64,000 nucleotides of DNA from a virus (IMGVR_UViG_3300032138_000012:5836-69835), one strand, 5' to 3'. Numbered from the stretch's first letter, positions 25,145-45,186 are shown. The notes: generated from the letters alone by a model not told the origin. A program made the numbers and translations.

Positions 25145-25789
25145 CTAGACATTTACACCCTTCACTGGACTGTCCAGTGTAAAGTGTACATTAAAGGCAA
25201 GCGACCTTCGCTCACCTTTTGACCTAAATGGATACACCTGGTGTGTAAGCCATGAAGGAAACAAATAAAAATCTCCAACCTCCGGTTTCGCGATGTAACT
25301 ATGCCTCGCAAAATGATTTGGAATGGATCCCAGAAACTCCAGGCATCCAGCTGTTGGATGGTGGTCTTCCTTTTCATACTCAGCGTTAAATCCTGGTGGT
25401 ATCTTAAGAAACGCGACACCGGACAGGTTTGAGTCATGAATGTGCATCGGATTGAAATCACCGGCATACTGTGACACGACCCACACGCGAAACGCAACCT
25501 TGCTGCCGTCAGCCGGTTCCTTGTCAATCGTGTGCTTGTAGTATGTCTTTGACATCGTAATGAGAAACTCCGCAAGATTTGGAACCCTGTTGTGGTCAAT
25601 GGCAATTTCCTTTTTGACATTGCCCGCAAGATTGTGGGACCAGTCGTGTTCCTTGCTCAGCTTGTCGTCATGAAGGATTCTGTCAGCTTCCGCGTTCAGA
25701 AGGTTGGTAAATCCCTGTGGCATTTTGGTCTTCAGTATGCTTGGACCAAAAGGCTGATAGATGTCGTATTGTAATTCTTGATTAGTCAG
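25145..25789 (-). CDS. 2OG-Fe(II) oxygenase (TIGR02466-like)
   Basis: WVV.Q..GDFNPMHIHDS.LSGV.FL..P..PEVGD..LFPSWL.H.V..RRSLAFN; frame open to a CTG at 25789 (first ATG at 25723). Confidence 0.75.
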   Translation of the reverse strand: MTNQELQYDIYQPFGPSILKTKMPQGFTNLLNAEADRILHDDKLSKEHDWSHNLAGNVKKEIAIDHNRVPNLAEFLITMSKTYYKHTIDKEPADGSKVAFRVWVVSQYAGDFNPMHIHDSNLSGVAFLKIPPGFNAEYEKEDHHPTAGCLEFLGSIPNHFARHSYIAKPEVGDFYLFPSWLTHQVYPFRSKGERRSLAFNVHFTLDSPVKGVNV

Positions 25790-27485: not shown

Positions 27486-28124
27486 ATGGCGTTTCTAGTA
27501 GCAAACTTACCCCCACTAAAAGTATTAGTTAAAAAAGAATACCTCTACGATTTCGAGAAAGGACACGGCGAACTGGTCGAAGGGCTGTGGGTCACTGTAA
27601 AATCCATTCAGGGGCGCGCACTGTATTTTGAGACTTATCTACCTGAATATGCGGCGTTGTATGACAAGCTTCCAATATCAGCGTTCGTGCACAAGGAAAC
27701 GGATTTGAATCTGGACCTGGAAGAACTGGAGCTCTGGGATGCATTCTCATATGATATAACCGTAATAGAAAAGAGAGCACTTGCGGGTGTGCGTTGTAAA
27801 TACCTTGCACCTTCAAAGAAATGGTATTATGGTGAGTACTTATTTACGATTGACAGTTGTCATGCTGACAGCAATGTTTTAAATGACAACTATTCAGAAG
27901 TTCCGGAAGAGCATAAATCGTTTAATATATTGGAATTAGACAATGGGCACTACGCTGCCCAGCCTAATAACCGCGTATTGTTTTATGACAAATCTTTGAC
28001 TCCTGCACAGCCACTACAGCCGGACTTTAAAGTTTCAACAAAATACTACTCAGTTGAAAACAAAAGCAAGTGGACAGCTGGCGATGATACGGACTATTTT
28101 TACGGATTAAGGGAGCAAGAATGA
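27486..28124 (+). CDS. Conserved marine phage hypothetical protein
   Basis: 212 aa, MAFLVANLPP..KEYLYD..YDKLPISAF..AAQPNNR; GAGG RBS. Confidence 0.7.
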   Translation: MAFLVANLPPLKVLVKKEYLYDFEKGHGELVEGLWVTVKSIQGRALYFETYLPEYAALYDKLPISAFVHKETDLNLDLEELELWDAFSYDITVIEKRALAGVRCKYLAPSKKWYYGEYLFTIDSCHADSNVLNDNYSEVPEEHKSFNILELDNGHYAAQPNNRVLFYDKSLTPAQPLQPDFKVSTKYYSVENKSKWTAGDDTDYFYGLREQE

Positions 28125-28363
28125 TTAAAATATGGTTTTTATTGGTGGTTATGTCCATGCCAAACGCACCTACGGTTAAATATGTGGGATCTCTGTATCC
28201 CACGGAGGATGACTGTTTGGAGGCGCAAATAGTCTATTTAAATACGTACGAAGCCAAACCACAAAACTACAAGGATAAATTGGTTACTGATGCATTTTGT
28301 TTACCTTTTGATGCATTTCCTGTACAAGGTATGAATTACAAGGATTCATCATTTGGCGCGTAG
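28121..28363 (+). CDS. Small exported or membrane protein
   Basis: Hydrophobic N-terminus; two Cys. Confidence 0.55.
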   Translation: MIKIWFLLVVMSMPNAPTVKYVGSLYPTEDDCLEAQIVYLNTYEAKPQNYKDKLVTDAFCLPFDAFPVQGMNYKDSSFGA

Positions 28364-28375
28364 CCTGGAGGGCAC

Positions 28376-29149
28376 ATGAAGTTTTGGTTAAAAATAATAG
28401 CATTAACGGTAATCTTGATATTAGTGTCAATATGGGCTAAACCCATAATGGCAGATGATACAAATACACAGACTAATACATCGGGTTCGAACACAAACAT
28501 CACGGGTGGGTACGAGAGTACTACCACGAACAACAACGATGGACAGACGAACACGACAACGGACAATTCAACATCTACATCAACTACCAATGGGGCCGGT
28601 ATTCCCCCTCCTTCAGCCAATTCACCAAGTTACTCCAGCATGTCTCAGGATGTGTGTAGCATGGGTGTTAGTGGTTCCGTTACTACTGGCATTGTTGGGA
28701 TCAGTGGTGGCAAACATTTTATAGACGAGAACTGCGAAAGAATAAAACTGGCCAAGGTCCTTCAGGATTTTGGCATGAAAGTTGCATCCGTGGCAGTGCT
28801 CTGTCAGGACGCACGCGTGCATGCTGCAATGCAATCCGCAGGAACGCCATGTCCATTTAACGGGAAAATCGGGGCCGAGGCGCAAGCACTGTGGGATAAG
28901 TATCCTGAACTAAGGCCGGATTATGACCTGTATTTAGCAAAAAAAGAGATAATTTCCAAAGTTGACGCAGAATTACTGGCACAGCAATTGAAAGAAGCTG
29001 AAGAGGAAGCTGCAAGAGTGGCTGCGGAAGAGGCTAAAAAAGCTGAAGAAGAAGCGTTAAGAAAAGCTGAAGAGGAAGCAAAATTAAATGAGGAAATTAG
29101 CAATATTGACGTTATTGTTGACTCTGAGCCTATCAGAATCCACGAATAG
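28376..29149 (+). CDS. Exported Cys-containing protein with Thr/Asn linker and coiled-coil tail
   Basis: Signal peptide; DVCSMGVSG..DENCERIKLAK..GMKVASVAVLCQD..AGTPCP motif. Confidence 0.65.
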   Translation: MKFWLKIIALTVILILVSIWAKPIMADDTNTQTNTSGSNTNITGGYESTTTNNNDGQTNTTTDNSTSTSTTNGAGIPPPSANSPSYSSMSQDVCSMGVSGSVTTGIVGISGGKHFIDENCERIKLAKVLQDFGMKVASVAVLCQDARVHAAMQSAGTPCPFNGKIGAEAQALWDKYPELRPDYDLYLAKKEIISKVDAELLAQQLKEAEEEAARVAAEEAKKAEEEALRKAEEEAKLNEEISNIDVIVDSEPIRIHE

Positions 29150-30827
29150 CGAAACGGTAACAACCGACAATCTTTTAAGCAACTCCACGTTTGGAACCGG
29201 AACGACGTATTCCGATACGGGTTGGACCATTTCCGGATATGACAGTTCCCACAACTACATAAGTTCCGCCGGTGGCAATGATCCCGGTGGCGCAGTGGCC
29301 TCGGGGAAGGACACGAACATCGAGCAGACCGTAAGTTCCATCAAGACGGCAGCCGGAATGACGGTCAATGAAATAAGAAAGGGTTTCAGCTCAGTGCTGT
29401 CTTCAGACATATGGTTCTGGAATTCATACGACAACACCACAACACTCAAGCAGACAATTACGGACAGTGCGGGAAATGTAACAGTACAGCAACGTGTCAT
29501 TCCGGACACGGGATGCGGCAGCAGCGATTGCGGACAGTACACCAACTACACGGACACACACATACAGGGAACGAATACCAGTGATGATTTCAGCATCAAG
29601 GTGGGCGTGTCAAACTCCAACAGCCTGAATTATCACCAGGGTCCCGACATAGATGACATACAGTTAAAAATTACCTACACAGACGTACCACCCATTGAGG
29701 AAGATACGCAGGAAGAACTGGAAGACATTACCGAGGACATTGAGGAGGACATTCCTGACTTTGATGAAATAGAGGATATAGAATGGGAAGAGGATTTTAC
29801 GTTTGAAGAGGAGTATTTTACCTGGGAAGAGGATTTTTATTTCGAGGAGGAATTTGACACAGCATGGGAAGAATTTGACACCGCGTGGAATGACTATGAA
29901 ATGGAATTCAACGATGAGGTATATCTTGAAGAGGAATTTACGGAATTTGAAGAAATGGAAATGCCTGAAGAATTTGAAATGACTATGATGCCAGAAGATT
30001 CATTCGAGGAAATGTACATGGAGGAATTTGAAGAATTTGAAACTTTTGAGGATGTCTTCAGTACATTAGACGGTGAGGATATGGAAATGTTTGAAGAATT
30101 TGAGGAATTTGAAGAGATGGAAGAAATGGAAATGGAAGAAGAAATAGTGGAAGAAATTGAGGATATGCCTGAAGAATTTGAAGAAATGGAGATGGCGGAA
30201 GAAGAAACACTTGACATGGAGGTAGAAGAAAGCGAAAATACCCCTGCTGAAACTGAAATGGACGAAGAAATGGAAATGGAAGAGGAAGCGGAAGAAATGG
30301 AGGTAGCTGAAAATGATGAAGAGCCTACTGAAGAGACTGCAGAAGCAGTGGAAGAAGAGCCAGAATCTGAAGAAAGCCCACAAGAGGTTGCTTCAGATGA
30401 AAGCGAAGCAGATGGAGAAGGAGTTGGTGCAGATGAAGAGTCTGTAGAAGAAGAGAAAAAGACTGTTGAAGTAGAAAAGGAGAAAATAAAAACAGTCGAC
30501 AATAAAATCAAAACTAAGATTAAAGAAATTAAAGTGGACGAAATCAAGGTGGCTAAAATCAAACCCACCTTGTTTTCGGACCAACCCAATCTGGAAACAT
30601 ATTCCAATGTCTCATTTTATACTCCGGAAGACCTAAATTATGAGGTAAATGACTCATTTTTTGAGCAGGTTAGCCTTGATATGTATAACAAACAGATATA
30701 TACTAATATCTCCCTCTCAGGATACATCCAGAGTGATCCTGTGGAAGTCCATCGCAAGAAGATGGAGGAAATCACTATCAAAAAGAGGACACTTATGATA
30801 GAATTACAGCAACTAAAAAATGAATAA
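29088..30827 (+). CDS. Exported protein with a beta-rich domain and a very long Glu-rich region
   Basis: 579 aa; signal peptide MRKLAILTLLLTLSLS; about 280 aa dominated by E/D/M/F. Confidence 0.7.
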   Translation: MRKLAILTLLLTLSLSESTNSETVTTDNLLSNSTFGTGTTYSDTGWTISGYDSSHNYISSAGGNDPGGAVASGKDTNIEQTVSSIKTAAGMTVNEIRKGFSSVLSSDIWFWNSYDNTTTLKQTITDSAGNVTVQQRVIPDTGCGSSDCGQYTNYTDTHIQGTNTSDDFSIKVGVSNSNSLNYHQGPDIDDIQLKITYTDVPPIEEDTQEELEDITEDIEEDIPDFDEIEDIEWEEDFTFEEEYFTWEEDFYFEEEFDTAWEEFDTAWNDYEMEFNDEVYLEEEFTEFEEMEMPEEFEMTMMPEDSFEEMYMEEFEEFETFEDVFSTLDGEDMEMFEEFEEFEEMEEMEMEEEIVEEIEDMPEEFEEMEMAEEETLDMEVEESENTPAETEMDEEMEMEEEAEEMEVAENDEEPTEETAEAVEEEPESEESPQEVASDESEADGEGVGADEESVEEEKKTVEVEKEKIKTVDNKIKTKIKEIKVDEIKVAKIKPTLFSDQPNLETYSNVSFYTPEDLNYEVNDSFFEQVSLDMYNKQIYTNISLSGYIQSDPVEVHRKKMEEITIKKRTLMIELQQLKNE

Positions 30828-31305
30828 CCTAGTAACTAAATTATCATCAATAGCTGCACTCCTTGGCGTTTTGGGTGCCATTGGGGCAGGGTTCGTGCAG
30901 TATGGAAAACTGATGGCAAAAATTGATGAACTGGACAAGCGTAAAGCAGTCATTAATCAAAGTGTTGATTTAGATCCATTGCACGAAAAAATATCATCAT
31001 TAGAAGTAGGATTAATAGATAGGATATCAACCGTAGAGGAAAAGATTCAACCCCAGGACATGACGTGGGTGCTTGAAGCCCATATTGATATAAGAGAGAA
31101 TATTGCTAAAATAAGAGAAGAAATAGCGGCTTTGGATATACCAGAAGAAACTAATTTAAAACCTTTAAACGAAGCAATTAAGAATCTTGAAAGTAAAATT
31201 TCAGAACTAGACACTAATGTAAAAATTGTACAGAAAGAGAACCAACTACAAGATGTTCTCATAGAAGAAATAAAAACTAAAGCAAATAATCCACTGGCGA
31301 ACTAA
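30820..31305 (+). CDS. N-anchored coiled-coil membrane protein (i-spanin-like topology)
   Basis: One N-terminal TM segment followed by long heptad helices. Confidence 0.55.
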   Translation: MNNLVTKLSSIAALLGVLGAIGAGFVQYGKLMAKIDELDKRKAVINQSVDLDPLHEKISSLEVGLIDRISTVEEKIQPQDMTWVLEAHIDIRENIAKIREEIAALDIPEETNLKPLNEAIKNLESKISELDTNVKIVQKENQLQDVLIEEIKTKANNPLAN

Positions 31306-31308
31306 TGA

Positions 31309-31518
31309 ATGAAAAAGATAGCGTTTTGTATAGCAATAATATCTACAATAAATTTATATGGATGTTATGACATGAATACCTTAAGCGTCAAGCCATCAAC
31401 AACTACAGTTACATACGGAAGAGATAGTGCTACGGCTGAAAAGGACGCCAAGAATGATGTCCTGACAGACACGGAAAAGACGTCCTGGACAATCAAACAA
31501 GTATTTAAGTGGGAGTAA
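31309..31518 (+). CDS. Putative lipoprotein
   Basis: MKK + hydrophobic stretch + lipobox-like LYGC. Confidence 0.55.
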   Translation: MKKIAFCIAIISTINLYGCYDMNTLSVKPSTTTVTYGRDSATAEKDAKNDVLTDTEKTSWTIKQVFKWE

Positions 31519-31521
31519 ATA

Positions 31522-31722
31522 ATGGAACGAATGATTATCTCAATCATTGCAGCGGCCCTCCTGGGGCTCGGCGCATGGAATTTAAATCAAACTTTCAACC
31601 TCTCCATTGAGATAGAGGGTATCAAGGGAAAGATTGAAGTTGTTGAAAAGGGAATGAAGCAATTAAGAAATATGATTGCGAAAGATAGACAAAAAAATAA
31701 AAAAAAGAAAAAGGATGACTAA
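31522..31722 (+). CDS. Small TM + coiled-coil protein
   Basis: N-terminal hydrophobic helix, basic tail. Confidence 0.55.
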   Translation: MERMIISIIAAALLGLGAWNLNQTFNLSIEIEGIKGKIEVVEKGMKQLRNMIAKDRQKNKKKKKDD

Positions 31723-31792
31723 GGATTTACCTAGTTGTCCCGGATGTGGTCATGTAATAGAGGAATGTATATGTGGGAGTATAGGAAAATAA
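31715..31792 (+). CDS. 25-aa CxxC-x6-CxC microprotein (not in track)
   Basis: MTKDLPSCPGCGHVIEECICGSIGK*; fills the gap and abuts the next ATG. Confidence 0.45.
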   Translation: MTKDLPSCPGCGHVIEECICGSIGK

Positions 31793-32203
31793 ATGGCAGA
31801 TAGAATGGACATCAGCGATAAAACCGCGATCAGCATGCCTATGCGCAACCTTCTCGCGATTCTCACGGCCACAGCGATTGGCGTGTATGCCTTCTTCGGG
31901 ATTCAGGAAAAGTTAAACAACCTCCAAACAGTCCAGACTCTTATGGAATCCGACCTCGTGAAAAACACGGAATTCCGTATCAAGTGGCCCAGGGGTGAGC
32001 TCGGCAGTTTACCTGCGGATGCTCAGCAGGACCTCCTTATAGAATTTATGGCCCAGCAGCTCGAGGGTATGCAAAAGGACATGGAGTCAATGATGTCAAA
32101 TACCGTGAATATAAAGAGATCACAGCAGGACATAGAACGCTTGCTCAACGACGTGGAGAAGCTCAAAGATAAAATTAGGGAGAACGGCAATGGAGGTAAT
32201 TAG
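31793..32203 (+). CDS. TM-anchored coiled-coil protein
   Basis: ISMPMRNLLAILTATAIGVYAFFG TM; FRIKWPRG.LG.LPAD motif. Confidence 0.6.
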   Translation: MADRMDISDKTAISMPMRNLLAILTATAIGVYAFFGIQEKLNNLQTVQTLMESDLVKNTEFRIKWPRGELGSLPADAQQDLLIEFMAQQLEGMQKDMESMMSNTVNIKRSQQDIERLLNDVEKLKDKIRENGNGGN

Positions 32204-32504
32204 CATCATAGTCATGTTCGTTTTCGGGAACATGAATGACCAAGAGCATAGAATGACACAGTATGTTCCAATGGAATCACTGTCCTCATGCATGAAGGAA
32301 GTGAGACTGCTCAAGAAAAAGGAAACGGATTACACAAAGAACGCATTCTGCGGTCCAGCACTCGTGGAATTGAGTGATGACGGGGAAATACTGACATTGC
32401 ACAACGAGCTACCGGAAGGGGCCAAGATGGTAAGGAAAGAAATAAGCAAGGAAGTGTTTGAAAGATGGACCCTTAGATCAAAAGAGAAATGGAATAACAA
32501 ATGA
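32190..32504 (+). CDS. Exported or membrane hypothetical protein
   Basis: Hydrophobic N-terminus, two Cys. Confidence 0.55.
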   Translation: MEVISIIVMFVFGNMNDQEHRMTQYVPMESLSSCMKEVRLLKKKETDYTKNAFCGPALVELSDDGEILTLHNELPEGAKMVRKEISKEVFERWTLRSKEKWNNK

Positions 32505-32596
32505 TGAAAGAATACCTACCCCTTATAATGACAGTCGTGGCGCTTACTGTGGTTGTGTGGTTATTAAACTCTGGCGTAGTGCTTGATTTTCTTTAG
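32501..32596 (+). CDS. 31-aa single-TM microprotein (not in track)
   Basis: MMKEYLPLIMTVVALTVVVWLLNSGVVLDFL*; ATGA overlap. Confidence 0.4.
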   Translation: MMKEYLPLIMTVVALTVVVWLLNSGVVLDFL

Positions 32597-32965
32597 CATG
32601 CCATGAACTCCGTTGTTTCTGCCCGGTGTCAATAAAGTTTTAAGATTCAATTTTTCAAATTCACTTTGATCGAAGTCAATGATGTCCTGGGGCCTGGATC
32701 CACTGTACACGTCCGCTATGAGACAGACCATTCCCTTTGATATAAGCGCGGCTGAGTCAGCGTGAAAGTACATCTTGCCATCATGATAACCCGGAACAAG
32801 CCATGTCTGTGACTGGCAGCCTGGAACTTCGAATTCCTTCAGCTTCAGGCTTTCATTAAGCTCCTTGGATTTCTTTCCAAAATCCATAATCCACAGAAAC
32901 TTGTCCTGGTTGTCTTCAATGTTGTCAAGAATATCTATGTAGATCTGTAACTTATTTTGAATCAA
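32564..32965 (-). CDS. sufE: SufE-family sulfur acceptor / cysteine desulfurase activator
   Basis: IMDFGKK, VPGCQSQTW (active Cys), F.ADS.ALISKG, LTPGRNNG motifs. Confidence 0.88.
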   Translation of the reverse strand: MIQNKLQIYIDILDNIEDNQDKFLWIMDFGKKSKELNESLKLKEFEVPGCQSQTWLVPGYHDGKMYFHADSAALISKGMVCLIADVYSGSRPQDIIDFDQSEFEKLNLKTLLTPGRNNGVHGMLKKIKHYARV

Positions 32966-33212
32966 TGGGTTCCAGCTCTTCCTGCATTTTCTCCGATGTA
33001 GTTCTTTCTTCTTTCTGCCTGATGGATTCCTTCATGGAAATATCCAGTATTTCTTTTTCCTCCAGCATCTTGGTATGAAAATCTTTTTCCTCATATAAAA
33101 ATTTTGTGTAGCAATATTCACAAACACCTTTATTATCTTTGTCCACTGTATAATACACAATAGGATGGTCATCCGCGCATGAAAATGTTTTGGTGTGGAT
33201 TATTTTTATCAT
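32952..33212 (-). CDS. zf-CHCC zinc-finger protein
   Basis: FSC..DHPIVY.....GVCEYCYTKF matches the C-H-C-C pattern. Confidence 0.7.
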   Translation of the reverse strand: MIKIIHTKTFSCADDHPIVYYTVDKDNKGVCEYCYTKFLYEEKDFHTKMLEEKEILDISMKESIRQKEERTTSEKMQEELEPIDSK

Positions 33213-33538
33213 ACGACACGTCCAGTCCTTTTGCATTCATAGCAGAAACGATCAAATCGTCCTGACTTGGTAAAAGTTGTTGAACATATGTAACATTCCA
33301 TTTCACCCAGTGCCGGATCACTCTTAAAACGATGGCGCATGCGTGTCTTTGTATATTTTGAATCGGGAGGTGGTGTGTATCCATTTTTGACTTTCTCCCG
33401 GTAGAGGACTCCGAGTACGGCATTTTTAGATTTGTTAAAAATTTTTCCAACTTCCTCCGCTGTATGATTCTTAATCAACTCACCGGCAAGCTTTAAGTCT
33501 TTTTCTTTCCATTCCATTTGTGGTCCAGGTTTAACCAT
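33209..33538 (-). CDS. gcrA: GcrA-like regulator (N-terminal HTH plus Cys cluster)
   Basis: W....L.L......TAEEVGK.F.KSKNAVLG.L.R resembles the GcrA N-terminus; C-terminal CYIC..CYEC. Confidence 0.6.
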   Translation of the reverse strand: MVKPGPQMEWKEKDLKLAGELIKNHTAEEVGKIFNKSKNAVLGVLYREKVKNGYTPPPDSKYTKTRMRHRFKSDPALGEMECYICSTTFTKSGRFDRFCYECKRTGRVV

Positions 33539-33767
33539 GCTTATATCTCTTTCTGTTTCTCTTGTTCCAGCGCTTATGCCATCCATAATTGCTTATCTTG
33601 CTGCCCCCATGCTCGCACATGGCATAGAAGCGATCCTTGGCCAAAAACACTAAATTACCCGGGTAGAATCGTACCACCCAACCCTTTAAAGCCCGATATA
33701 GGCCCGCTATGAGCTTTTTTATTTGGCTGAATACCGTCGTTTCCTCGCCTGGGTCCCAAACGTCCAT
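33531..33767 (-). CDS. Hypothetical protein with basic C-terminus
   Basis: 78 aa, coupled junctions. Confidence 0.5.
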   Translation of the reverse strand: MDVWDPGEETTVFSQIKKLIAGLYRALKGWVVRFYPGNLVFLAKDRFYAMCEHGGSKISNYGWHKRWNKRNRKRYKHG

Positions 33768-33955
33768 TATTTGTCTTTTTTAGGCTCTTCGGGGTTATTT
33801 AGGAAATCATCGCACAACTGCACTGCGCCAACAAGGCCATTCAGCTGTGCCTGCATGTTTGCAAGTGCATTTTTGCCCTCAGTTATTTTTTCTTGTAAAG
33901 CATTGTGCTGCTTCACTAACATTTCTTTTTTCTTTTTTATATCTTCTGTCTTCAT
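33767..33955 (-). CDS. Small coiled-coil protein
   Basis: 62 aa heptad pattern. Confidence 0.6.
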   Translation of the reverse strand: MKTEDIKKKKEMLVKQHNALQEKITEGKNALANMQAQLNGLVGAVQLCDDFLNNPEEPKKDK

Positions 33956-34068
33956 TATTTTCTCCTTATCTTCATTCCCAAGCGGGCACGCCTTCGGTTC
34001 TTTCTCTTATTAGATCCAACCTTGCGTCTCCCCTTGTGTTTCTTTCTTTTTAAATCAGCTTTACTCAC
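33955..34068 (-). CDS. 37-aa Lys/Arg-rich microprotein (not in track)
   Basis: GTG start overlapping TAG; MSKADLKRKKHKGRRKVGSNKRKNRRRARLGMKIRRK*; TAATG overlap downstream. Confidence 0.6.
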   Translation of the reverse strand: MSKADLKRKKHKGRRKVGSNKRKNRRRARLGMKIRRK

Positions 34069-35159
34069 TATACTCCACAAAGCCCTTCGCATTCATCGGC
34101 GAACTCTTCGTCAAATGTTTCACCAAACAGGCTTTGCTGTTTCTTTGGTTCCAGGAAATTTATATCGCCTAAAGGCTTAGCTGATTTATGTAAAAATAAT
34201 TCTGCCGTTGTATTCTTTAGTCCATGTCTAATTAAATTATCAACTTCCACCGCGTCTTCAAAATCATGCGGATAGTTTTTCTGCATGTTTTTCCACTGGT
34301 CATTGTGATGGTAAGGACACCCTATGCACGAGGACTTGCCTGGCATAGGATGCTTTTTAATGTCACGGTACCACTGTAAGCAGTCCGCTCTTGACATTTT
34401 CATTTCGATCAATGGCCAACGGGATTCAATCCATGGCAATCGTGCTTTTTTCATACGCATTGCTTCATCTGTTGATATCCCAATCCACTGTTCGACAATT
34501 GTTCCTTTTTTCACGCGGTGGCGTGGCTTTACGCCAAGTATCCTCCGCATTTCCTTTTGTATGGGAATGACCTTGTAATCATGTGTACACTGTCTGTATA
34601 ACATTCCAACCTTTCCACCAGGACGCGCAGCAAACAGTGGAGGGTTTGGTACGCGTCCGGCGAAAGATTTATGCTCCTCATTTGACCCCTTAATGGGATT
34701 CGCTGCTCGAATCAAATCCTCACGGATGTTGCTTCGTTCCACAGTAATGAGTGGGCAAATCGTTATGGCTTTTTTCAGGTATTCCACATGCTCATATACG
34801 AATGAGGGTTCCCATCCAGTGTCCGCAAAAATCATGTAGTCCGGCTTGTGTTTTGTTAGTCCTTCCTGCGCCATGAGTGCGAGACAGGAAGACTGTACCC
34901 CTGCGCCGAGCGATAATATACGCATTGTGGGCTCTCTTTTGTTCCCTTCCTCATCAAGATATTCCGGTTCCTTGGTCGCAGAAACTGCCGCCATGTTATT
35001 AAGATCTTTTTTAGTAACTTTAGTAGACATCTCTTCCAAAAGCTTGCGTCTTTCAAAATCCATTTGTTCTGGGTTGATTGCAAATCCATGTTTTACTCCA
35101 TCCGCTCGTTTCTTTCCTTGTGCCCGGTACCCGGGTTTTTGGTCACTTTTAGTTGTCAT
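34068..35159 (-). CDS. PAPS-reductase-like / PP-loop adenine nucleotide alpha-hydrolase with Cys clusters
   Basis: LSLGAGVQS PP-loop variant, FADTGWE, RQCT, WIGISTDE..R, KSSCIGCPYH, C-terminal ECEGLCGV. Confidence 0.75.
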   Translation of the reverse strand: MTTKSDQKPGYRAQGKKRADGVKHGFAINPEQMDFERRKLLEEMSTKVTKKDLNNMAAVSATKEPEYLDEEGNKREPTMRILSLGAGVQSSCLALMAQEGLTKHKPDYMIFADTGWEPSFVYEHVEYLKKAITICPLITVERSNIREDLIRAANPIKGSNEEHKSFAGRVPNPPLFAARPGGKVGMLYRQCTHDYKVIPIQKEMRRILGVKPRHRVKKGTIVEQWIGISTDEAMRMKKARLPWIESRWPLIEMKMSRADCLQWYRDIKKHPMPGKSSCIGCPYHHNDQWKNMQKNYPHDFEDAVEVDNLIRHGLKNTTAELFLHKSAKPLGDINFLEPKKQQSLFGETFDEEFADECEGLCGV

Positions 35160-35661
35160 TTAGTTCTCTCAATGTTCTGATGATTTTTTGCGTATAATAT
35201 ACGTCCTCCGCATAAATTGCAAGTGTCTTTGCTAACCTCTCCGGGTCAACTATGTCGTTGATATACTGCAATAATCGCTCCTCTCTGAATTTGTTATAGT
35301 GATGGCTATTGTTTAACAATTCAATATAGTAAGATATGGATTCGCACTTAGTCTCAAAGATCCTGAGCCCCCAACTCGCATAAGGTCTATTCATGGGTTT
35401 CATTTGGTCATCTGATGGGTCGAATGTGCGGATCCCAAGGAGGTTATTGCCTTCAACAGCGAACCTGGAGCGCCCCCATTCAGACTCGTGAATGGCTTGC
35501 GCTACCACTAGATCTACAGGAATTCTTTTATCCTCTGTATATAATGAATTGAGGTGAACAATGCACGCACGTACGTCCTCAACGAATTCATCATTGTTGG
35601 TGTAATCCATTACCGGATTAAAACTTAAACAGATTAAAAGTGTCTTACAGATCCAGTTCAT
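35149..35661 (-). CDS. GH73 glucosaminidase (Bax/FlgJ-like)
   Basis: VVAQAIHESEWGRSRFAVEGNNLLGIR, YAED..Y motifs; hydrophobic N-terminus. Confidence 0.8.
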   Translation of the reverse strand: MNWICKTLLICLSFNPVMDYTNNDEFVEDVRACIVHLNSLYTEDKRIPVDLVVAQAIHESEWGRSRFAVEGNNLLGIRTFDPSDDQMKPMNRPYASWGLRIFETKCESISYYIELLNNSHHYNKFREERLLQYINDIVDPERLAKTLAIYAEDVYYTQKIIRTLRELNDN

Positions 35662-37505
35662 CCTCCCCAGCTTTCTCCTACATTAATGTCAACCTTTGAT
35701 GGAACTTCAAGTTCCACGCAAGTTTCCATAACTTCCTTTATCTTTTTACCCTCATTCTCATCCTTGACGGAACAGTTAAGCTCGTCATGCACCTGGATAT
35801 GGGGAATTATATTTAATTGTTCATAGACGTCAACCATTGCTTTCTTGGTTTGGTCCGCAGCTGAACCTTGAATCAGTCTGTTAAGTGCCTTGTATGTGAA
35901 TGCCCTTTTGATGGCATCACCATACTCCACCTTTGCTTGATTTAGTGGCAGTGCCTTGTGTACACCCCAAGATGTAGGTTCCCACAGATCAAATCTGCAT
36001 TTACGTCCCAACAGTGTACGAATGACACCCTTTGTATTGGCACGGTTCATCACCGCTTCAAGCATTCCCTGCATAAACGGTACGCGCGCACGGAAATCCG
36101 CCAGCATTTTCTTGGCTTCCTGTGGTTCAAGGTCCAAGTCACGCGCTAACTTGTTATAGCCCATGCCATACATGACTCCTAGTCCGATAGTCTTCGCAAG
36201 GCGTCTCTCCACGCCTGCCATTTCGGCCGTTTGTTGGTGAAAGTCGAGGTCCGTTTTATGATATGCTTCCTGTACTTCCCTAGCACCGGGTTGGTCGACG
36301 AGTCTTGCCCAGTGCGTAAGTAACCTGGGCTCCTGTTGCGAGTAGTCCGCTTTGAGCCAGTAGAGTCCCTGTTCCGGGATGAAAAGTTTCCTGATGTCTT
36401 TCGCGAATTGTCCCCTGCTCGGAATCTGCTGTAAATTAGGATGATTATAAGAAAAGCGACCAGTGACAGTACCTCCACTGTCAGACCTAATTTGGTTAAT
36501 GTGGGCATGTATCCTCCCGTCATTGTTGTGATTTAGCAACCCATGCAGGAAGGTTCCCCTTAGCTTGTTTAGTTCCCTCGCCTGCATAATTAACCGAGGT
36601 AACTCATGTGGATGGTCCGTAAGGAACATCTTCGTAAATGAAGGAGAATTGGTCTTTTCCGTTCTTTCATAGGGTAGGTTCAAGGCGTCAAAAGCTTTTG
36701 ATATTGACGCCGCTGCCCATATCTCTATGTTAAGACCGGTTAGATCCTTGATTCTCTTCATTAATTTTTTTTCTTTCTTTTTAAACTTGTCATTTAACTC
36801 TACGCATTTATATTGGTCAAAACGAACACCCTGTTGTGTCATTCTAAAAATAACATGAATCAATTTGCATTCGACATCATAAATAGTGGTAAGATTATCC
36901 TTGACAATCTCCCATGACAACTTCTCATGCAACTTGTAGGTTAGATCAGCGTCCGCTTCCGCGTATTCACCCACAAAAGTGGATGGTAATTTATACATCT
37001 CATTCTTGGGATCAACCCCGAAAGCGTCAGCCGCTTCCTTGAGCTTTTGTTCATTCTTGAACTCTCCTAGATACTCATGCACAATGCTGTTAAGTGTATA
37101 GGAGAACCTGTTCTCATCTATGAGTGCCGCAGCCACCATGGTGTCATGGACTCGTCCCTTTACTTCTATTCCTATTGTAGAAAGCCAACCAATATCATAT
37201 TGTGCGTTGTGAAATATTTTTTCAATGGAATCATCTTCACATACGGATTTAACATACTTAATAACTTTCTTTTCATCCATGTTTCCACCACCGGAGTGGG
37301 CAATGGGATAGTACCCCTTGAAAGAGGCATTAGCGACAGCAATGCCAATGACGTAGCCACGCTTGCGTGGCCATCCTGGACCTTCCTTGATCAAGTGTGG
37401 GTCACACGTCTCCAAGTCTACTGCTACTTTGCCTTCCAGTTTAGGAAATTCCGTGGGTGCAACCCAATTGGAATTTACTGTTTTAAAAAGATCCTGAGTC
37501 ACCAA
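35658..37505 (-). CDS. polA: Family A DNA polymerase with 3'-5' exonuclease
   Basis: VDLET, FHNAQYD, HDTM exonuclease motifs; TGRFS..PNLQQIP, KADYSQQEPR, KTIGLGVMYGMG, LNRLIQGSAAD, QVHDEL. Confidence 0.95.
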   Translation of the reverse strand: MVTQDLFKTVNSNWVAPTEFPKLEGKVAVDLETCDPHLIKEGPGWPRKRGYVIGIAVANASFKGYYPIAHSGGGNMDEKKVIKYVKSVCEDDSIEKIFHNAQYDIGWLSTIGIEVKGRVHDTMVAAALIDENRFSYTLNSIVHEYLGEFKNEQKLKEAADAFGVDPKNEMYKLPSTFVGEYAEADADLTYKLHEKLSWEIVKDNLTTIYDVECKLIHVIFRMTQQGVRFDQYKCVELNDKFKKKEKKLMKRIKDLTGLNIEIWAAASISKAFDALNLPYERTEKTNSPSFTKMFLTDHPHELPRLIMQARELNKLRGTFLHGLLNHNNDGRIHAHINQIRSDSGGTVTGRFSYNHPNLQQIPSRGQFAKDIRKLFIPEQGLYWLKADYSQQEPRLLTHWARLVDQPGAREVQEAYHKTDLDFHQQTAEMAGVERRLAKTIGLGVMYGMGYNKLARDLDLEPQEAKKMLADFRARVPFMQGMLEAVMNRANTKGVIRTLLGRKCRFDLWEPTSWGVHKALPLNQAKVEYGDAIKRAFTYKALNRLIQGSAADQTKKAMVDVYEQLNIIPHIQVHDELNCSVKDENEGKKIKEVMETCVELEVPSKVDINVGESWGG

Positions 37506-37776
37506 TTTCTCCCGCTATTGCTGCATAACCCGCCATGTCAATGAAGTTATCCAAGTTAAATTTTCCACCTTGTGTGTGTCTTGATACCTTTAACAATATC
37601 ATCATAATAGCCACGTCATCGGCTGTAATATTGGCCATTGGTCTTAACTTACCATCCAGAAATATATTCCAGAATTCCGCAATCTCTGCGTGGTTCTTGA
37701 ATGCATCTCCGTGTGATGCATTTCTATCATTAGAAATGATCTCTTTTGCTTTCTTTAATATTTCTTCCTTGGTCAT
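37483..37776 (-). CDS. DUF6378-like phage protein
   Basis: IL..A..II..DR...HGD...N...IA..W..DVA.MM.LLK..R...DN..D.AGYAA pattern. Confidence 0.65.
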   Translation of the reverse strand: MTKEEILKKAKEIISNDRNASHGDAFKNHAEIAEFWNIFLDGKLRPMANITADDVAIMMILLKVSRHTQGGKFNLDNFIDMAGYAAIAGEIGDSGSF

Positions 37777-39278
37777 ATTATAAATCCTCCCTGTCTTTGT
37801 GGCTGAACCACATGTAGTGTTTCCCTTGCGCGTGTAGTCCCTACATAGAACACACGGCATTCATCGTCTGAATCCTTTTCCATTGCCTCGTTTGCTTTCC
37901 TGGAAAGATCAGTAAGAAGCATGACATTGTCCGCTTCCCCACCTTTCGCTCCATGGATTGTGCTTAAATGAATCTTGGGATCAGTTGTTATTAACTGTCC
38001 TCTTAATTCAATTGCACGTAAAAATTCCTTGTCCCTGTTTCCCACCTTGTCAAAAGCGACATCCCACGGTCTTCCAGCCATTAACAGACCATGATGCATA
38101 ACAAGTTCTTCCAACTCATATTCATCCTTCTCAGCTGTCTTTAATCCCTTGTGTCCTCTCTCAATTCCAATTTGGGAAGACATGTAAGAATAGATGGATT
38201 TTATGTCTGTCTTTGTTGCTAATGCACCTGCGTTAAGATTCTTCCATGCATCCACGGCACTCATGAGCTTTTGGGATATGGGTAACTTGTTATTTCTCTT
38301 GTATAACAGTCCTTGCAATCTCACGTCCCTTTCAATTTCATCCAATAAATACTGTGTCCTTGCCATTATCAGCCACGTTCCTTCTTTCTTTAGATCTACA
38401 CTCTCCGGATAGGAATGAAATTGGAGAAATCCTTCCTTGTTTGTTCCTCTCCAGCTCTTTGGCCTTCTATTCCTTACCCTTCCAATAATCCTCTGTGAGA
38501 AATTCTGTACCACTCTTGGACATCTGTAAGACTGAGTGAGAACTTTGGTTTCTCCTGGCATATTAATCAAGTGTTCGACATCTGCCCCTGCCCATCTGTA
38601 GATGGCTTGGTCATCATCACCACTTATATAAATATGCTTTACATTCTGGATAATCTTATCGATCATTCTCCATTGCAATCTGCATAAGTCCTGCGCCTCG
38701 TCCACGAACACCACGTCAAGCTTGGGAATCATTCCGGAATCCAGGTACATTTCTATCATGTCAGTGAAATCCAGTAGCTCTTTTTTCTTTTTAAATTCTT
38801 CAAGGGATCTTTGGGCCCTTAATAATGCGTGCCATGAAATATCTTGCAAATTGGAACTATTATAGTGATGCTCCAGCTCCATGCATTTCATTCTTGCCAG
38901 ATTAACCTCATTTATCAACATATTATCCGTTGTAAATACTCCACCGGAATCAACACCGTCCGTAACGGATCCAAGATCCATCCCGAATGCCTGCGCAAAC
39001 TCCTTGTAATTATCTCTTGACATCACTTCCGCCTTGGTCATTCCAAGTTGATGGAATGCGAATGAATGCAATGTCCTGAAATAAGGAAGATGTTGTTCTT
39101 CTAATTTAAATTTTTTCATCGCTCTCTCACGCGCCTCAGTTGCTGCTTTCTTAGTAAAAGCCAGAAAAGCAATACGATCGGGTGGCGTTCCACGTGCCAA
39201 TTCTTCTTCCACAAGCTCCAAAAGGTTGTGTGTCTTGCCAGTTCCTGGAGGTCCCAGTATTATTTTAGTTTTTGCCAT
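37773..39278 (-). CDS. SF1 (UvrD/Rep-like) DNA helicase
   Basis: GPPGTGKT, FTKKAA, FRTLHS, VDEAQD, GDDDQAIY.W.GA, QSYR, STIHGAKGGEA, YVGTTRA. Confidence 0.9.
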   Translation of the reverse strand: MAKTKIILGPPGTGKTHNLLELVEEELARGTPPDRIAFLAFTKKAATEARERAMKKFKLEEQHLPYFRTLHSFAFHQLGMTKAEVMSRDNYKEFAQAFGMDLGSVTDGVDSGGVFTTDNMLINEVNLARMKCMELEHHYNSSNLQDISWHALLRAQRSLEEFKKKKELLDFTDMIEMYLDSGMIPKLDVVFVDEAQDLCRLQWRMIDKIIQNVKHIYISGDDDQAIYRWAGADVEHLINMPGETKVLTQSYRCPRVVQNFSQRIIGRVRNRRPKSWRGTNKEGFLQFHSYPESVDLKKEGTWLIMARTQYLLDEIERDVRLQGLLYKRNNKLPISQKLMSAVDAWKNLNAGALATKTDIKSIYSYMSSQIGIERGHKGLKTAEKDEYELEELVMHHGLLMAGRPWDVAFDKVGNRDKEFLRAIELRGQLITTDPKIHLSTIHGAKGGEADNVMLLTDLSRKANEAMEKDSDDECRVFYVGTTRARETLHVVQPQRQGGFII

Positions 39279-39612
39279 GAAAATCACACCTCCCATCTTT
39301 GTAAACGTATAATAATTTCACGCCTATTTTCTTTTGGTATTCATTAACCACTCTACTTATTCTGTATCCTTTCTTAGGACCACTTTTTCTAATAGAAACA
39401 GTCTTCACGTCCAGTTTTAAAACGTCACCGGTGTTGCGGTGAATGGCCACAAGATCAATTGGATCGTTATCCTGTGTTTTTACGTACACTAAATAATTTA
39501 GGCTAATCAACCATGCCGCTGCTATAAATTCACTGCGCTGGCCTTTCATTACTTTACTCATATCTTCTTCTAATAATTGACCGTAGTATGTTTTAGAATG
39601 GGGCATCATCAA
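39265..39612 (-). CDS. PD-(D/E)XK endonuclease (Hjc-like)
   Basis: G..SE..A..WL..PIDLVA..LDVKT motif. Confidence 0.65.
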   Translation of the reverse strand: MMMPHSKTYYGQLLEEDMSKVMKGQRSEFIAAAWLISLNYLVYVKTQDNDPIDLVAIHRNTGDVLKLDVKTVSIRKSGPKKGYRISRVVNEYQKKIGVKLLYVYKDGRCDFHGKN

Positions 39613-42816: not shown

Positions 42817-42845
42817 TTGACTCGTATTATATACTATGATAGAAT
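42817..42845 (+). promoter_or_regulatory. Sigma70 promoter for glycosylase/SNF2 genes
   Basis: TTGACT-N17-TAGAAT. Confidence 0.7.
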
Positions 42846-42854
42846 GCTTGTCAA
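42826..42854 (-). promoter_or_regulatory. Perfect-consensus sigma70 promoter for the replication operon
   Basis: TTGACA (42854-42849)-N17-TATAAT (42831-42826). Confidence 0.85.
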
Positions 42855-42868
42855 CATTAGAAATAAGA

Positions 42869-43351
42869 ATGAATATATTTTTTTTACATAGGGATCCGTC
42901 CCGTGCTGCCAAAGCTCAATGTGATAAGCATGTAGTAAAGATGGTACTTGAAACTACGCAAATGTTATCTACAGCCATTAGACGACGTGGTTATGACGCA
43001 GGATATAAATCAGCTTATCCCAATCATCCCATGACAATATGGGTTGGTGATACACGTGATAATTTTTATTGGGCGCTTTGTCACGCAGAAGAATTATCTA
43101 AAGAATATACCATGCGTTATAAAAAGTTTCATGCATGTCAAAAAATTATTGATGCCATTCGCGAACTTTATCCAAGCCTTTCGTCTTTTAAGAATATTAC
43201 TGATCCTCCACAGTGCATGCCGGATGAATTTAAACAAGATGATTTTGTCCGTGCCTATAGAGACTATTATATACATAAAATTGGTCAATGGAAAAGACCA
43301 CCAAAATGGTTTAAAAGTTTAGACGCAGATCCTTATTATGCCAATGTATAA
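42869..43351 (+). CDS. denV: Pyrimidine-dimer DNA glycosylase (DenV-like)
   Basis: MNIFFL..P..AA...CDKHVVKM.LE..QMLST, H.NHP..IW motifs. Confidence 0.75.
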   Translation: MNIFFLHRDPSRAAKAQCDKHVVKMVLETTQMLSTAIRRRGYDAGYKSAYPNHPMTIWVGDTRDNFYWALCHAEELSKEYTMRYKKFHACQKIIDAIRELYPSLSSFKNITDPPQCMPDEFKQDDFVRAYRDYYIHKIGQWKRPPKWFKSLDADPYYANV

Positions 43352-44777
43352 ATTTAAAACTGAGCCATACGAGCATCAAAAAGATGCTTTAAAAAAATGC
43401 TGGAACAAGGAAGCATTCGCCATTTTTGCTGAAATGGGAACGGGAAAAACAAAGATAGCGTTGGATAACGCGTGCATACTTTATAATCGAGGCAAAATAG
43501 ACCGCTTACTAGTGGTTGCCCCTAAAGGTGCGTATATGAACTGGGTAGATTTGGAAATTCCTACCCACGTTCCTGATTACATTGAAAAAAATGTATTGGC
43601 ATGGAAACCAGCGACAAGCGCCAAGTACAGGGCACAGTTAAAAAACATAATGGACTTGAGTGACTATAGATTAAAAATTATGGTCATGAACGTGGAAGCA
43701 TTTTCCACCAAGAAAGGACTGGAATTTGCCAGGTTGTTTTTAATTGGTAAAGCCATGATGATTGTTGATGAGAGCACAACTATCAAAAATCCACAAGCAA
43801 AAAGAACAAAGAATATTTTATCATTGGCCAAAGAGACCAAGTACAGACGTATAATGACTGGATCGCCAGTAACACAATCACCAATGGATCTGTGGGCGCA
43901 AATGGATTTCCTTGATCCGGAAATACTGGGTCAACAAAGTTATTACGCATTCAGGACCCGGTACGCCGTGGTCATTACAGCGAATGCCGCAGGTGGAACG
44001 CACAAGTACCAGAAGATTGTAAAATTCAAGAATTTGGCACAACTGGGACAGCTTGTATCACCACACTCATACCGTATATTGAAGAAAGAATGCCTTGACC
44101 TCCCGGACAAGGTATATACCAAGAGGGAAGTAGAATTAACGGACGAACAGCAACTGGCGTACAAGGACATGAAAACAAATGCCATGACTTTCTTAAAGGG
44201 AAAGTCACTAACGGCTGTCAATGTTCTGACACAATTAATAAGACTGCACCAAATAACATGTGGTCATCTTAAAACTGATGGCGGGGAAACACTGGATCTT
44301 AAAAATAACAGACTTGATGAACTGATGCAGATCCTAGGTGAGACCACAGGAAAAGTAATTATCTGGGCCAATTACATTCATGATATTAAACGAATAGAAA
44401 AAGCCATTTCAGATGAGTATAGTCCTAGTTCTTGTTGCACGTATTATGGCGCGACAGCGACAGAAGACAGACAAAAATGTATTAATGCTTTCCAGGGAAA
44501 AACTTCCATACGTTTCTTCATAGGAAACACCCAGACGGGTGGGTATGGAATCACGCTCACGGCTGCAAGCACAGTCATATACTATTCAAATAATTATGAT
44601 CTGGAGAAAAGAATACAGTCAGAGGACCGTGCCCATAGAATAGGACAAAAAAATTCGGTACTATATATAGATATGGTAGCCAAAGGGACTGTGGATGATA
44701 AAATCATTAAGTCCCTTCGGAACAAGGTTAACATCGCCAAAGAAATCAGTGGCGAGGAACTTTCTACCTGGATTTAA
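43338..44777 (+). CDS. SNF2-family helicase
   Basis: EMGTGKT, VDEST.IKN, MTGSP, LTQLIRLHQ, GGYGITLTAA, QSEDRAHRIGQ. Confidence 0.9.
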   Translation: MPMYKFKTEPYEHQKDALKKCWNKEAFAIFAEMGTGKTKIALDNACILYNRGKIDRLLVVAPKGAYMNWVDLEIPTHVPDYIEKNVLAWKPATSAKYRAQLKNIMDLSDYRLKIMVMNVEAFSTKKGLEFARLFLIGKAMMIVDESTTIKNPQAKRTKNILSLAKETKYRRIMTGSPVTQSPMDLWAQMDFLDPEILGQQSYYAFRTRYAVVITANAAGGTHKYQKIVKFKNLAQLGQLVSPHSYRILKKECLDLPDKVYTKREVELTDEQQLAYKDMKTNAMTFLKGKSLTAVNVLTQLIRLHQITCGHLKTDGGETLDLKNNRLDELMQILGETTGKVIIWANYIHDIKRIEKAISDEYSPSSCCTYYGATATEDRQKCINAFQGKTSIRFFIGNTQTGGYGITLTAASTVIYYSNNYDLEKRIQSEDRAHRIGQKNSVLYIDMVAKGTVDDKIIKSLRNKVNIAKEISGEELSTWI

Positions 44778-45186
44778 TTTTTATTTCTTTTGGTTTTTCA
44801 GCTTCTGGAATATCCATGTGATAATTCACAGTCAACATTCCGTCTTTCAATTCAGCCCCATCCACAACCACATACTTATGCAATTGGAATTTTTTGATGA
44901 AACTTCTTTCAGAAATTCCACGGTGAATTAAATGTCTTGGACTATTTACTCCTAATTCTGTGGCGGAATAAGGTTTTTCCGCGCAACTCGTAATTGTAAG
45001 GGAATTGTCCTTAACTTCAACTTTCAAATCCTTCTCAGCGAACCCAGCTACGGCCATCTCAATAAAGCCTTTTTCTGAATTACCTCGTATGTTGTATGGT
45101 GGATAAGTGGAGACTCTCCTGAAACTGTCAAAAAAGTCATTGTGAAAACCAAGAAAATGGTTACGTAATATATCTAGCTCGTTCAT
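44764..45186 (-). CDS. hsp20: Small heat-shock protein (Hsp20/IbpA-like)
   Basis: YPPYNI, EMAVAGF, HRGIS.RSF...F.L, A.LKDGML.V, IPEAEKPKEI.I. Confidence 0.9.
   Translation of the reverse strand: MNELDILRNHFLGFHNDFFDSFRRVSTYPPYNIRGNSEKGFIEMAVAGFAEKDLKVEVKDNSLTITSCAEKPYSATELGVNSPRHLIHRGISERSFIKKFQLHKYVVVDGAELKDGMLTVNYHMDIPEAEKPKEIKIKSR

Follow-up and report, generated by a model that had tools for sequence, protein, structure and literature searches.

Does a phage that encodes a sulfur-handling protein use it to serve an enzyme of its own? The question is raised by a 64,000-nucleotide stretch of a viral contig (IMGVR_UViG_3300032138_000012:5836-69835, referred to here as the window), in which a block of replication genes ends with genes for a cysteine-rich enzyme resembling phosphoadenosine phosphosulfate (PAPS) reductase and for the protein SufE. 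An earlier note, made from the sequence alone, had proposed that SufE diverts host sulfur to this enzyme and that thio-modified phage DNA or nucleotides are the product. Our data indicate that, by profile comparison, the nearest characterised relative of the enzyme is SspD, and that SufE is its constant companion in one clade of marine phages. SspD is a PAPS-reductase-domain ATP pyrophosphatase and the writer of single-strand phosphorothioate in the SspABCD system. We tentatively favour the reading that the locus encodes an orphan SspD-like Fe-S enzyme acting on phage DNA or nucleotides together with a recruited phage SufE that draws on host SUF sulfur, which we regard as a reasonable possibility rather than a probable one. 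Homology, conserved residues, gene order and distribution are the observations on which it draws; the cluster, the substrate, the sulfur transfer and the DNA modification within it are predictions. The two genes in question are:

34068-35159, minus strand: SspD-like enzyme with a PAPS-reductase fold, phrog_424, 363 amino acids (open reading frame, profiles and fold)
32564-32965, minus strand: SufE, 133 amino acids, active-site Cys50 (Pfam PF02657)

The Enzyme Is Related to SspD by Profile Comparison

The family assignment of the enzyme rests on phrog_424, the PADLOC model of SspD, profile-profile alignment and fold, the match to Pfam PAPS_reduct (PF01507) being below threshold (17.2 bits, cut-off 22.5). 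None of the NCBIfam models matched at E < 0.01, including those for CysH, adenosine phosphosulfate (APS) reductase and DndC (TIGR03183). The phage family phrog_424 ('phosphoadenosine phosphosulfate reductase') matched with E 7.9e-47, aligning residues 39-363 to profile positions 118-412 of 460, and SspD was the sole PADLOC defence model to match (E 6e-12). The same model was matched by 16/16 family members, with a best E of 3e-15, in an alignment that extends down to 44% identity.

We compared the family alignment, using hhalign, with 12 true SspD, 10 true DndC and 12 APS reductase sequences, the SspD reference genes being matched by the SspD model at E 1e-82 to 1e-138. SspD aligned with a probability of 98.6% (E 1e-15, 194 columns), APS reductase with 69% (E 4.5e-5, 145 columns) and DndC with 11% (E 0.003, N-terminal half only). 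An AlphaFold model of the enzyme (mean pLDDT 73, confident core at residues 70-340) has the adenine-nucleotide alpha-hydrolase fold as judged by VIA-align, with Z scores of 10.8, 9.8, 9.4 and 9.2 for the PAPS/APS reductases 7rge, 2goy, 6vpu and 7lhr over approximately 170-178 aligned residues, and of 9.6 and 8.8 for the [4Fe-4S] thiolase NcsA and TtuA. A Foldseek search of the model against the PDB returned nothing at E <= 1e-3, the best match being about 1e-3.

Judged by these profiles, the specific relative of the enzyme is SspD, and DndC, TtcA and CysH share only its superfamily. The placement of a Cys-rich protein in the PAPS-reductase-like/PP-loop superfamily, as first proposed, is thus upheld by phrog_424, hhalign and fold. 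DndC and TtcA/TtuA, which the earlier note had put forward as close relatives, give way to SspD; together with CysH they have the superfamily and the PAPS-reductase fold in common with the enzyme, but none is its specific relative. As identities for the enzyme we rejected DndC, on the absence of a TIGR03183 match and the hhalign result above; the tRNA thiolases TtcA, TtuA and NcsA, which have only fold-level likeness, no Pfam or NCBIfam match, and a canonical PP-loop that the enzyme does not have; and true CysH, on the sub-threshold PF01507 score and the absence of a CysH or APS-reductase match in NCBIfam.

Among proteins of solved structure, sequence comparison matched only PptA (21fy_C, PDB 21fy chain C), the E value being 0.01 for the single sequence and 5.6e-4 for the profile. 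The match spans the Cys-rich half of the enzyme, and the two have the motifs W-x-L-(I/L)-(D/E), D-C-L and C-x-G-C in common. A literature search for PptA found no relevant paper.

Six Invariant Cysteines and a Clade-Specific Extension

The enzyme carries the motifs SLGAGVQS at residues 83-90, RQCT at 189-192 and SSCIGCPYH at 276-284, and ends in ECEGLCGV (356-363). Across 16 sequences that are 44-86% identical to it, SLGAGVQS and six cysteines (C191, C260, C278, C281, C357 and C361) are invariant. In the hhalign alignments, C191 and C278/C281 fall opposite RWCT and C-x-F-C of SspD, with FxDTGxE, R(W/Q)CT, I(R/S)xDE and CxxC as the motifs aligned between the two families; C191 and the CxxC region likewise correspond to CC and SIGCxPC, the cluster motifs of APS reductase. 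Since the invariant cysteines align with SspD and APS-reductase motifs, it is reasonable to predict that C191, C278 and C281, perhaps joined by C260, bind a [4Fe-4S] cluster and that the C-terminal tail is mobile and carries a persulfide. The tail itself, ECEGxCG(V/L) at the very end of the enzyme and ECG(L/I)H in the reductases, lies in a region that hhalign did not align.

Residues 1-75 (window 34935-35159) form a basic, helical, low-confidence extension ahead of the core (76-363). It occurs only in the clade that carries SufE, and relatives at 44-51% identity are without all or most of it. The extension could serve as a docking or DNA-binding arm.

We found that the enzyme is the best-conserved protein of the replication module within its clade, ahead of the phage's own DNA polymerase: median identity across related contigs is 86% for the enzyme, 77% for PolA, 66% for SufE and 62% for the helicase. 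Among 65 related contigs, enzyme identity is nearly flat (77-91%) while that of PolA spreads from 61 to 96%, which suggests either very strong constraint or recombinational homogenisation.

SufE Accompanies the Enzyme Throughout One Phage Clade

SufE was matched by PF02657 at 114.3 bits (cut-off 27, E 3.9e-33), with residues 13-129 covering profile positions 4-120 of 121, and carries GCQSQTW at residues 49-55. Residues G49, C50, R116 and G119 are invariant within the clade and in 30 sequences that include cellular SufE (31-54% identity). The NCBIfam scores for SufE (88.6 bits, cut-off 160) and CsdE (54.4, cut-off 136.4) lie below equivalog level and mark a divergent member of the family, and the closest representatives from outside the clade, found on contigs under 1 kb, are at most 56% identical.

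We defined close relatives as the 65 contigs with the enzyme at 70% identity or more. SufE lies downstream of the enzyme in 16/16 of those with at least 2.5 kb of downstream sequence, and in 28/30 of those with at least 1.5 kb, both exceptions ending before its expected position. The gap between the two genes ranges from 0.5 to 3.9 kb (median 1.0 kb) and the small genes within it vary. The SufE described as intact in the earlier note is indeed so: it is conserved, and fixed in the operon of every clade relative that is long enough. No paper on SufE together with a phage PAPS-like enzyme was found in the literature searched.

We found no gene for a cysteine desulfurase (Aminotran_5), radical-SAM protein, thioredoxin or glutaredoxin in the 69.8-kb phage genome, and no other Fe-S or sulfur enzyme among roughly 50 phage open reading frames scanned. 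Because no other Fe-S enzyme was found among these, the SspD-like enzyme is the only evident client of SufE. A complex prediction of the enzyme core (64-363, without the N-terminal extension) with SufE scored 0.00, 'no answer', and speaks neither for nor against binding.

The conservation of SufE also bears on the idea that it is a counter-defence decoy, starving host Dnd, Ssp, BREX type 4 or tRNA thiolation by way of the desulfurase. Host phosphorothioation systems do depend on a cysteine desulfurase, IscS or SufS (PMC9239176, PMC12914056), and the neighbouring enzyme belongs to a family found in anti-restriction contexts. Yet Cys50 and the SufS-facing motifs do not vary, a constancy that one would look for in a working shuttle and that a blocker would not need, and no precedent was found in the literature searched, so that we hold a decoy to be very improbable.

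The Enzyme Family Occurs in Replication and Anti-Restriction Contexts

We next considered where else the enzyme family is found. A metagenome protein collection holds more than 6,000 relatives, and family genes occur in at least 594 IMG/VR stretches and at least 580 bacterial stretches. Phages of a sister clade (45-50% identity) carry the gene in the same replication module, with helicase on one side and PolA on the other. Isolated phages with the enzyme include Salisaeta SSIP-1, Thermus P23-77, Geobacillus PK5.1, many prophages of Mycobacterium abscessus and Pelagibacter phage HTVC034P, in which the neighbours of the gene serve recombination and replication.

Eighty bacterial loci, mostly from Alphaproteobacteria and Paenibacillaceae, carry an enzyme homologue, which directly follows ArdC in 39/80 and precedes a ParB_N protein of about 710 amino acids in 38/80. 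In approximately half of the 80 the arrangement is a fixed trio of ArdC (ArdcN plus zincin peptidase), PAPS-like enzyme and ParB_N protein, often with DUF6117 nearby; examples among loci L110-L188, whose hosts are mostly Alphaproteobacteria, are L183:6991-7944 and L162:9057-11189. The trio has the appearance of an anti-restriction module carried by a conjugative element, and an ArdC/ParB setting is typical of the leading regions of such elements. A phage fusion of a PAPS domain with Dam confers Dnd resistance experimentally (bioRxiv 10.1101/2021.05.05.442762; cited as anti-Dnd in PMC13551039). Taken together, the replication-module and ArdC/ParB_N contexts and the precedent of the PAPS-domain/Dam fusion point to DNA-directed counter-defence, not sulfate assimilation, as the role of the enzyme family.

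A Putative Sulfur Route

On the reading that we tentatively favour, C191 and C278/C281 (RQCT and CIGCP), possibly with C260, would bind a [4Fe-4S] cluster in the manner of APS reductase, DndC and TtuA-type enzymes, and the Gly-rich loop SLGAGVQS would bind nucleotide or phosphate. SufE would most likely take persulfide from a host type-II cysteine desulfurase (SufS/CsdA) and would hand the sulfur to the enzyme, build its cluster, or do both. The flexible C-terminal cysteine pair (ECEGxCG) may carry the persulfide, and the enzyme would transfer sulfur during replication, with phage DNA or a nucleotide precursor as the acceptor, leaving a counter-defence mark.

A bolder form of this proposal is that the clade thiolates its own DNA, in backbone or base, by a lone SspD-like enzyme that dispenses with nickase and ATPase, with SufE tapping host SUF and the N-terminal extension as the docking site. 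We consider this unlikely. If true, no virus-encoded sulfur relay would have been seen to feed a DNA modification before, and the relay would adapt the phage to hosts that rely chiefly on a SufE-dependent desulfurase of type II.

Weighing a Dedicated Sulfur Relay

A number of results weigh against the enzyme and SufE forming a dedicated relay, and they concern the distribution of the two genes, the gene content of the phage and the nucleotide loop of the enzyme. SufE is present in 0/23 viral records of the sister clade (4 of them at least 90% complete) and within 8 kb of the enzyme in 0/79 bacterial loci, the single SufE match in the bacterial set (L109) being a binned contig of the window's own phage clade. 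Only 3/50,697 phage records carry SufE, with none among the 48 records that have the enzyme. A motif scan of IMG/VR found 3 genuine viral SufE outside the clade, all without the enzyme and including two from complete genomes (200 kb and 519 kb); since the pattern was G-C-Q-S-Q-V-W-(L/F) only, this count of other viral SufE is a lower bound. Outside the clade the two genes are independent, so the enzyme needs no phage SufE, and because the synteny is confined to one clade it may be mere inheritance. The association of the two genes is a single evolutionary event, which fits functional recruitment or inherited gene order. The co-occurrence of sufE with the enzyme family is thus complete within the clade, but outside it the distribution is independent, an outcome that the earlier note had named as refuting its proposal.

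One of the three phage records with SufE, a 103-kb 'Bacteriophage sp.' entry (L093, MW462191.1 69449-81820), has Tet(X4), EvgS and protease II within the 12 kb that hold SufE, and seems to be of bacterial or chimeric rather than phage origin.

These distributions count in favour of a rival reading, in which SufE is a generic auxiliary gene that stimulates host SufS and so sustains Fe-S assembly in the infected cell, as when seawater imposes iron, sulfur or oxidative stress. SufE would then have no dedicated link to the enzyme, which would use host sulfur donors directly, and the gene order would be inherited. The enzyme family is without SufE in every other lineage examined, the two genes are parted by 0.5-3.9 kb of variable small genes and are not adjacent, and the phage SufE retains all generic SufE features. 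Moreover, sufE without sufS has been reported from marine viromes as a viral auxiliary gene, with a general boost to Fe-S assembly as its proposed effect (PMC8940887). On the other hand, SufE is rare in viruses, by the record and motif-scan counts given above; the clade in which it is fixed is precisely the one where a Cys-rich, sulfur-type enzyme is the best conserved of the replication-module proteins; and the phage proteins examined include no other Fe-S client. We regard a generic SufE as the main alternative, live if somewhat doubtful. The earlier proposal that SufE diverts host sulfur to the enzyme, rather than acting as a generic auxiliary gene, is therefore plausible, but it has a live rival that is already described (PMC8940887).

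The zinc-finger protein zf-CHCC, which the earlier note had counted as part of the sulfur system, falls away. It is present, at shifting positions, in only 9/34 relatives that carry both enzyme and SufE, so we rejected it as a system component and regard it as variable accessory cargo.

The gene content of the phage bears on the chemistry. Minimal writer sets for phosphorothioate comprise dndCD, sspBCD or brxPC plus a cysteine desulfurase, possibly host IscS or SufS, so that a PAPS-domain protein is paired with a dedicated P-loop NTPase in each, and isolates with a PAPS-domain gene but without such an NTPase lacked phosphorothioate (PMC12914056). DndA/IscS builds the DndC cluster and donates sulfur (PMC9239176), and host SufS has been taken as the desulfurase for BrxP-dependent phosphorothioation (PMC12914056). 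We found no match to SspB, SspC, DndD, DndE or BrxC among 10 replication-module and flanking proteins, including two small open reading frames, and no SspA-type desulfurase (Aminotran_5) or ParB in the phage genome. The UvrD-like helicase of the module and an SNF2 ATPase 8 kb away are not homologous to the phosphorothioation partners. Because the ATPase and DNA-targeting partners required in published work were not found, phosphorothioation is one candidate chemistry, not an established one. The thio-modified phage DNA first proposed gains from the nearest characterised relative being a DNA phosphorothioation enzyme, but loses from the absence of these partners.

The nucleotide loop is the remaining point. 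The canonical SGGKDS of SspD and DndC aligns with G-A-G-V-Q-S in the enzyme, and ATP-dependent adenylation is uncertain because Gln stands at the place of the Asp of SGGxDS. The 'PP-loop' named in the earlier note is thus not the canonical SGGxDS but an invariant variant, SLGAGVQS, at the same position. The enzyme might accordingly insert no sulfur at all and be a (P)APS- or nucleotide-binding, reductase-like protein or an ATP pyrophosphatase performing a non-sulfur modification, with SufE serving its cluster only or unrelated to it. Its loop resembles the degenerate loop of (P)APS reductases (consensus S-x-G-A-E-D), its best structural matches and its second hhalign match are with these reductases, its E-C-x-G-type tail recalls their ECGLH, and the PAPS-reductase superfamily includes non-sulfur enzymes (PMC11437467). 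We nonetheless find this quite unlikely: the Pfam PAPS_reduct match is sub-threshold and no NCBIfam CysH or APS-reductase model matches, the SspD profile match is far better than that of APS reductase, and the gene context is one of replication and anti-restriction, not sulfate assimilation.

Genome and Operon Layout

The window comes from a 69.8-kb viral contig in IMG/VR with an estimated completeness of 86%. No close nucleotide match was found among the 50,697 phage records, and the nearest isolates by PolA are phage DSL-LC04 (51% identity) and the Pelagibacter phages HTVC023P (49%) and HTVC027P (45%). The virus is an abundant, uncultured marine tailed phage. From 42498 to 32564 the minus strand holds a single, densely packed gene block with replication genes first and SufE last. 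Besides the enzyme and SufE it contains:

5' part of the block, starting at 42498, minus strand: replication module with Pam3 gp33-like and gp34-like proteins and an AEP-type (archaeo-eukaryotic) primase
37773-39296, minus strand: UvrD-like helicase (Pfam)
37483-37860, minus strand: DUF6378 (Pfam)
35658-37505, minus strand: PolA (Pfam)
35149-35661, minus strand: glucosaminidase, between PolA and the SspD-like gene (Pfam)
33955-34092, minus strand: very basic small open reading frame, 45 amino acids, overlapping the 3' end of the enzyme gene
33767-33955, minus strand: small protein, 62 amino acids, probably coiled-coil (open reading frame, sub-cut-off Pfam matches)
33531-33767, minus strand: small protein, 78 amino acids (open reading frame, no family match)
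33209-33586, minus strand: GcrA-like helix-turn-helix protein with a CxxC..CxxC zinc ribbon, 125 amino acids (open reading frame, feature search)
32952-33236, minus strand: zf-CHCC zinc-finger protein, 94 amino acids (Pfam PF10276, borderline)

The genes and motifs first reported for this locus were all recovered in place on the minus strand by open reading frame calls. Neighbouring genes overlap or abut (e.g., 35149/35159 and 32952/32965), and the upstream order of helicase, DUF6378, PolA and glucosaminidase is the same in related contigs. Genes from 32504 leftward are on the opposite strand, which makes SufE the last gene, at the 3' end of the replication operon; with primase, helicase and PolA upstream, the description of the locus as the end of a replication operon is correct. 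We infer co-transcription of the block from gene packing. The packing fits the co-transcription claimed at the outset, but a promoter and terminator scan of the locus gave no signal above shuffled expectation.

The small genes were counted over the 34 relatives defined above by enzyme and SufE. The 45-amino-acid frame has relatives at 74-89% identity in 6 related contigs and no Pfam or PHROG match. The 62-amino-acid frame is present in 20/34 relatives and has weak coiled-coil Pfam matches below cut-offs; the 78-amino-acid frame, in 27/34, found no family in Pfam, phrog or NCBIfam profile searches. The 125-amino-acid frame, in 14/34, gave nothing against Pfam at E < 0.01 and scored 0.96 by language-model features against viral clusters with PF07750 GcrA in 33-53% of their members. 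As listed, the 78- and 125-amino-acid frames overlap by 56 nt, an overlap that recurs in relatives (e.g., L022). Because homology to the longer frame begins only at residue 20-23, a later start is likelier than a real long overlap, and translation probably begins at its third Met (about 33517). The zf-CHCC match to PF10276 is borderline (27.3 bits, cut-off 27), with the Cys, His and CxxC ligands visible in the translation. GcrA-like and zf-CHCC families hint at an alphaproteobacterial host.

The embedded glucosaminidase gene is present in 19/34 relatives with enzyme and SufE, and is one of two cell-wall hydrolase genes in the phage, the other being a phage lysozyme (45916-46416). Elsewhere in the window, a plus-strand block (27486-32504), in which GC and AT skew are both reversed, encodes a 579-amino-acid protein (29088-30827, plus strand) whose N-terminus resembles a signal peptide and which contains a very long, extremely acidic stretch of low complexity, enriched in E, D, M and F. 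Further genes encode a 2-oxoglutarate-Fe(II) oxygenase (25145-25723, minus strand), Hsp20 (44764-45186, minus strand), a GNAT acetyltransferase (52894-53349, minus strand) and, on the plus strand, a pyrimidine-dimer glycosylase (42836-43351) followed by an SNF2-family helicase (43338-44777) whose top PADLOC matches are the ZorD and DpdE helicase domains.

Implications

Annotators commonly file 'PAPS reductase' genes of phages under auxiliary sulfur metabolism and treat sufE in viruses as a general aid to Fe-S assembly. In the present case profile comparison relates such an enzyme to SspD, its family occurs in replication and anti-restriction contexts, and one marine clade of global abundance has SufE as a fixed companion. 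Should the link prove functional, it would name a sulfur route for an uncharacterised family of phage and conjugative-element enzymes and would point to sulfur-modified DNA in ocean viruses, with a bearing on restriction evasion, the sequencing chemistry of viromes and the sulfur demand of infection. Enzyme and SufE together make a simple two-gene construct for biochemistry.

Comparison with Known Systems

The enzyme shares with SspD the motifs FxDTGxE, R-x-C-T, I-x-x-DE and CxxC, a cysteine pair at the extreme C-terminus and a core of about 280 amino acids. Unlike SspD, it has SLGAGVQS in place of SGGKDS, an extra invariant cysteine (C260) and the tail ECEGxCG instead of CxxCH; its gene lies in a phage replication operon, it has a 75-amino-acid clade-specific N-terminal extension, and no SspA, SspB or SspC was found with it.

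DndC, the [4Fe-4S] PP-loop sulfurtransferase of DndABCDE, resembles the enzyme in superfamily and in a weak alignment of the N-terminal half that includes R-x-C-T, but is 440-560 amino acids long with a canonical SGGKDS, and no DndD or DndE was found beside the enzyme. In DndC the single change C280S abolishes modification (PMC9239176). APS/PAPS reductase (CysH) provides the best fold matches and has a non-canonical Gly-rich loop as well. Its cluster cysteines occupy homologous places (CC and RQCT; SIGCxPC and SCIGCP), and the Cys tails are similar in kind. CysH differs in its tail motif, while the gene context of the enzyme is not sulfate assimilation and its PF01507 score is below cut-off.

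Among phage proteins, the PAPS-domain/Dam fusion of Vibrio crassostreae podophages (Piel et al.) provides, by its published description, a PAPS-like domain that acts in counter-defence, the role proposed here. Unlike the enzyme, this domain is joined to a methylase and is not accompanied by SufE; a related oyster Vibrio phage record matches the enzyme at 30% identity (E 8e-22). The phage SufE resembles SufE and CsdE in its full-length Pfam domain, its G-C-Q-S active-site loop and its R-x-N-G motif. From the sufE genes of the marine virome survey it differs, in an arrangement not reported there (PMC8940887), by being the fixed operon partner of an SspD-like enzyme.

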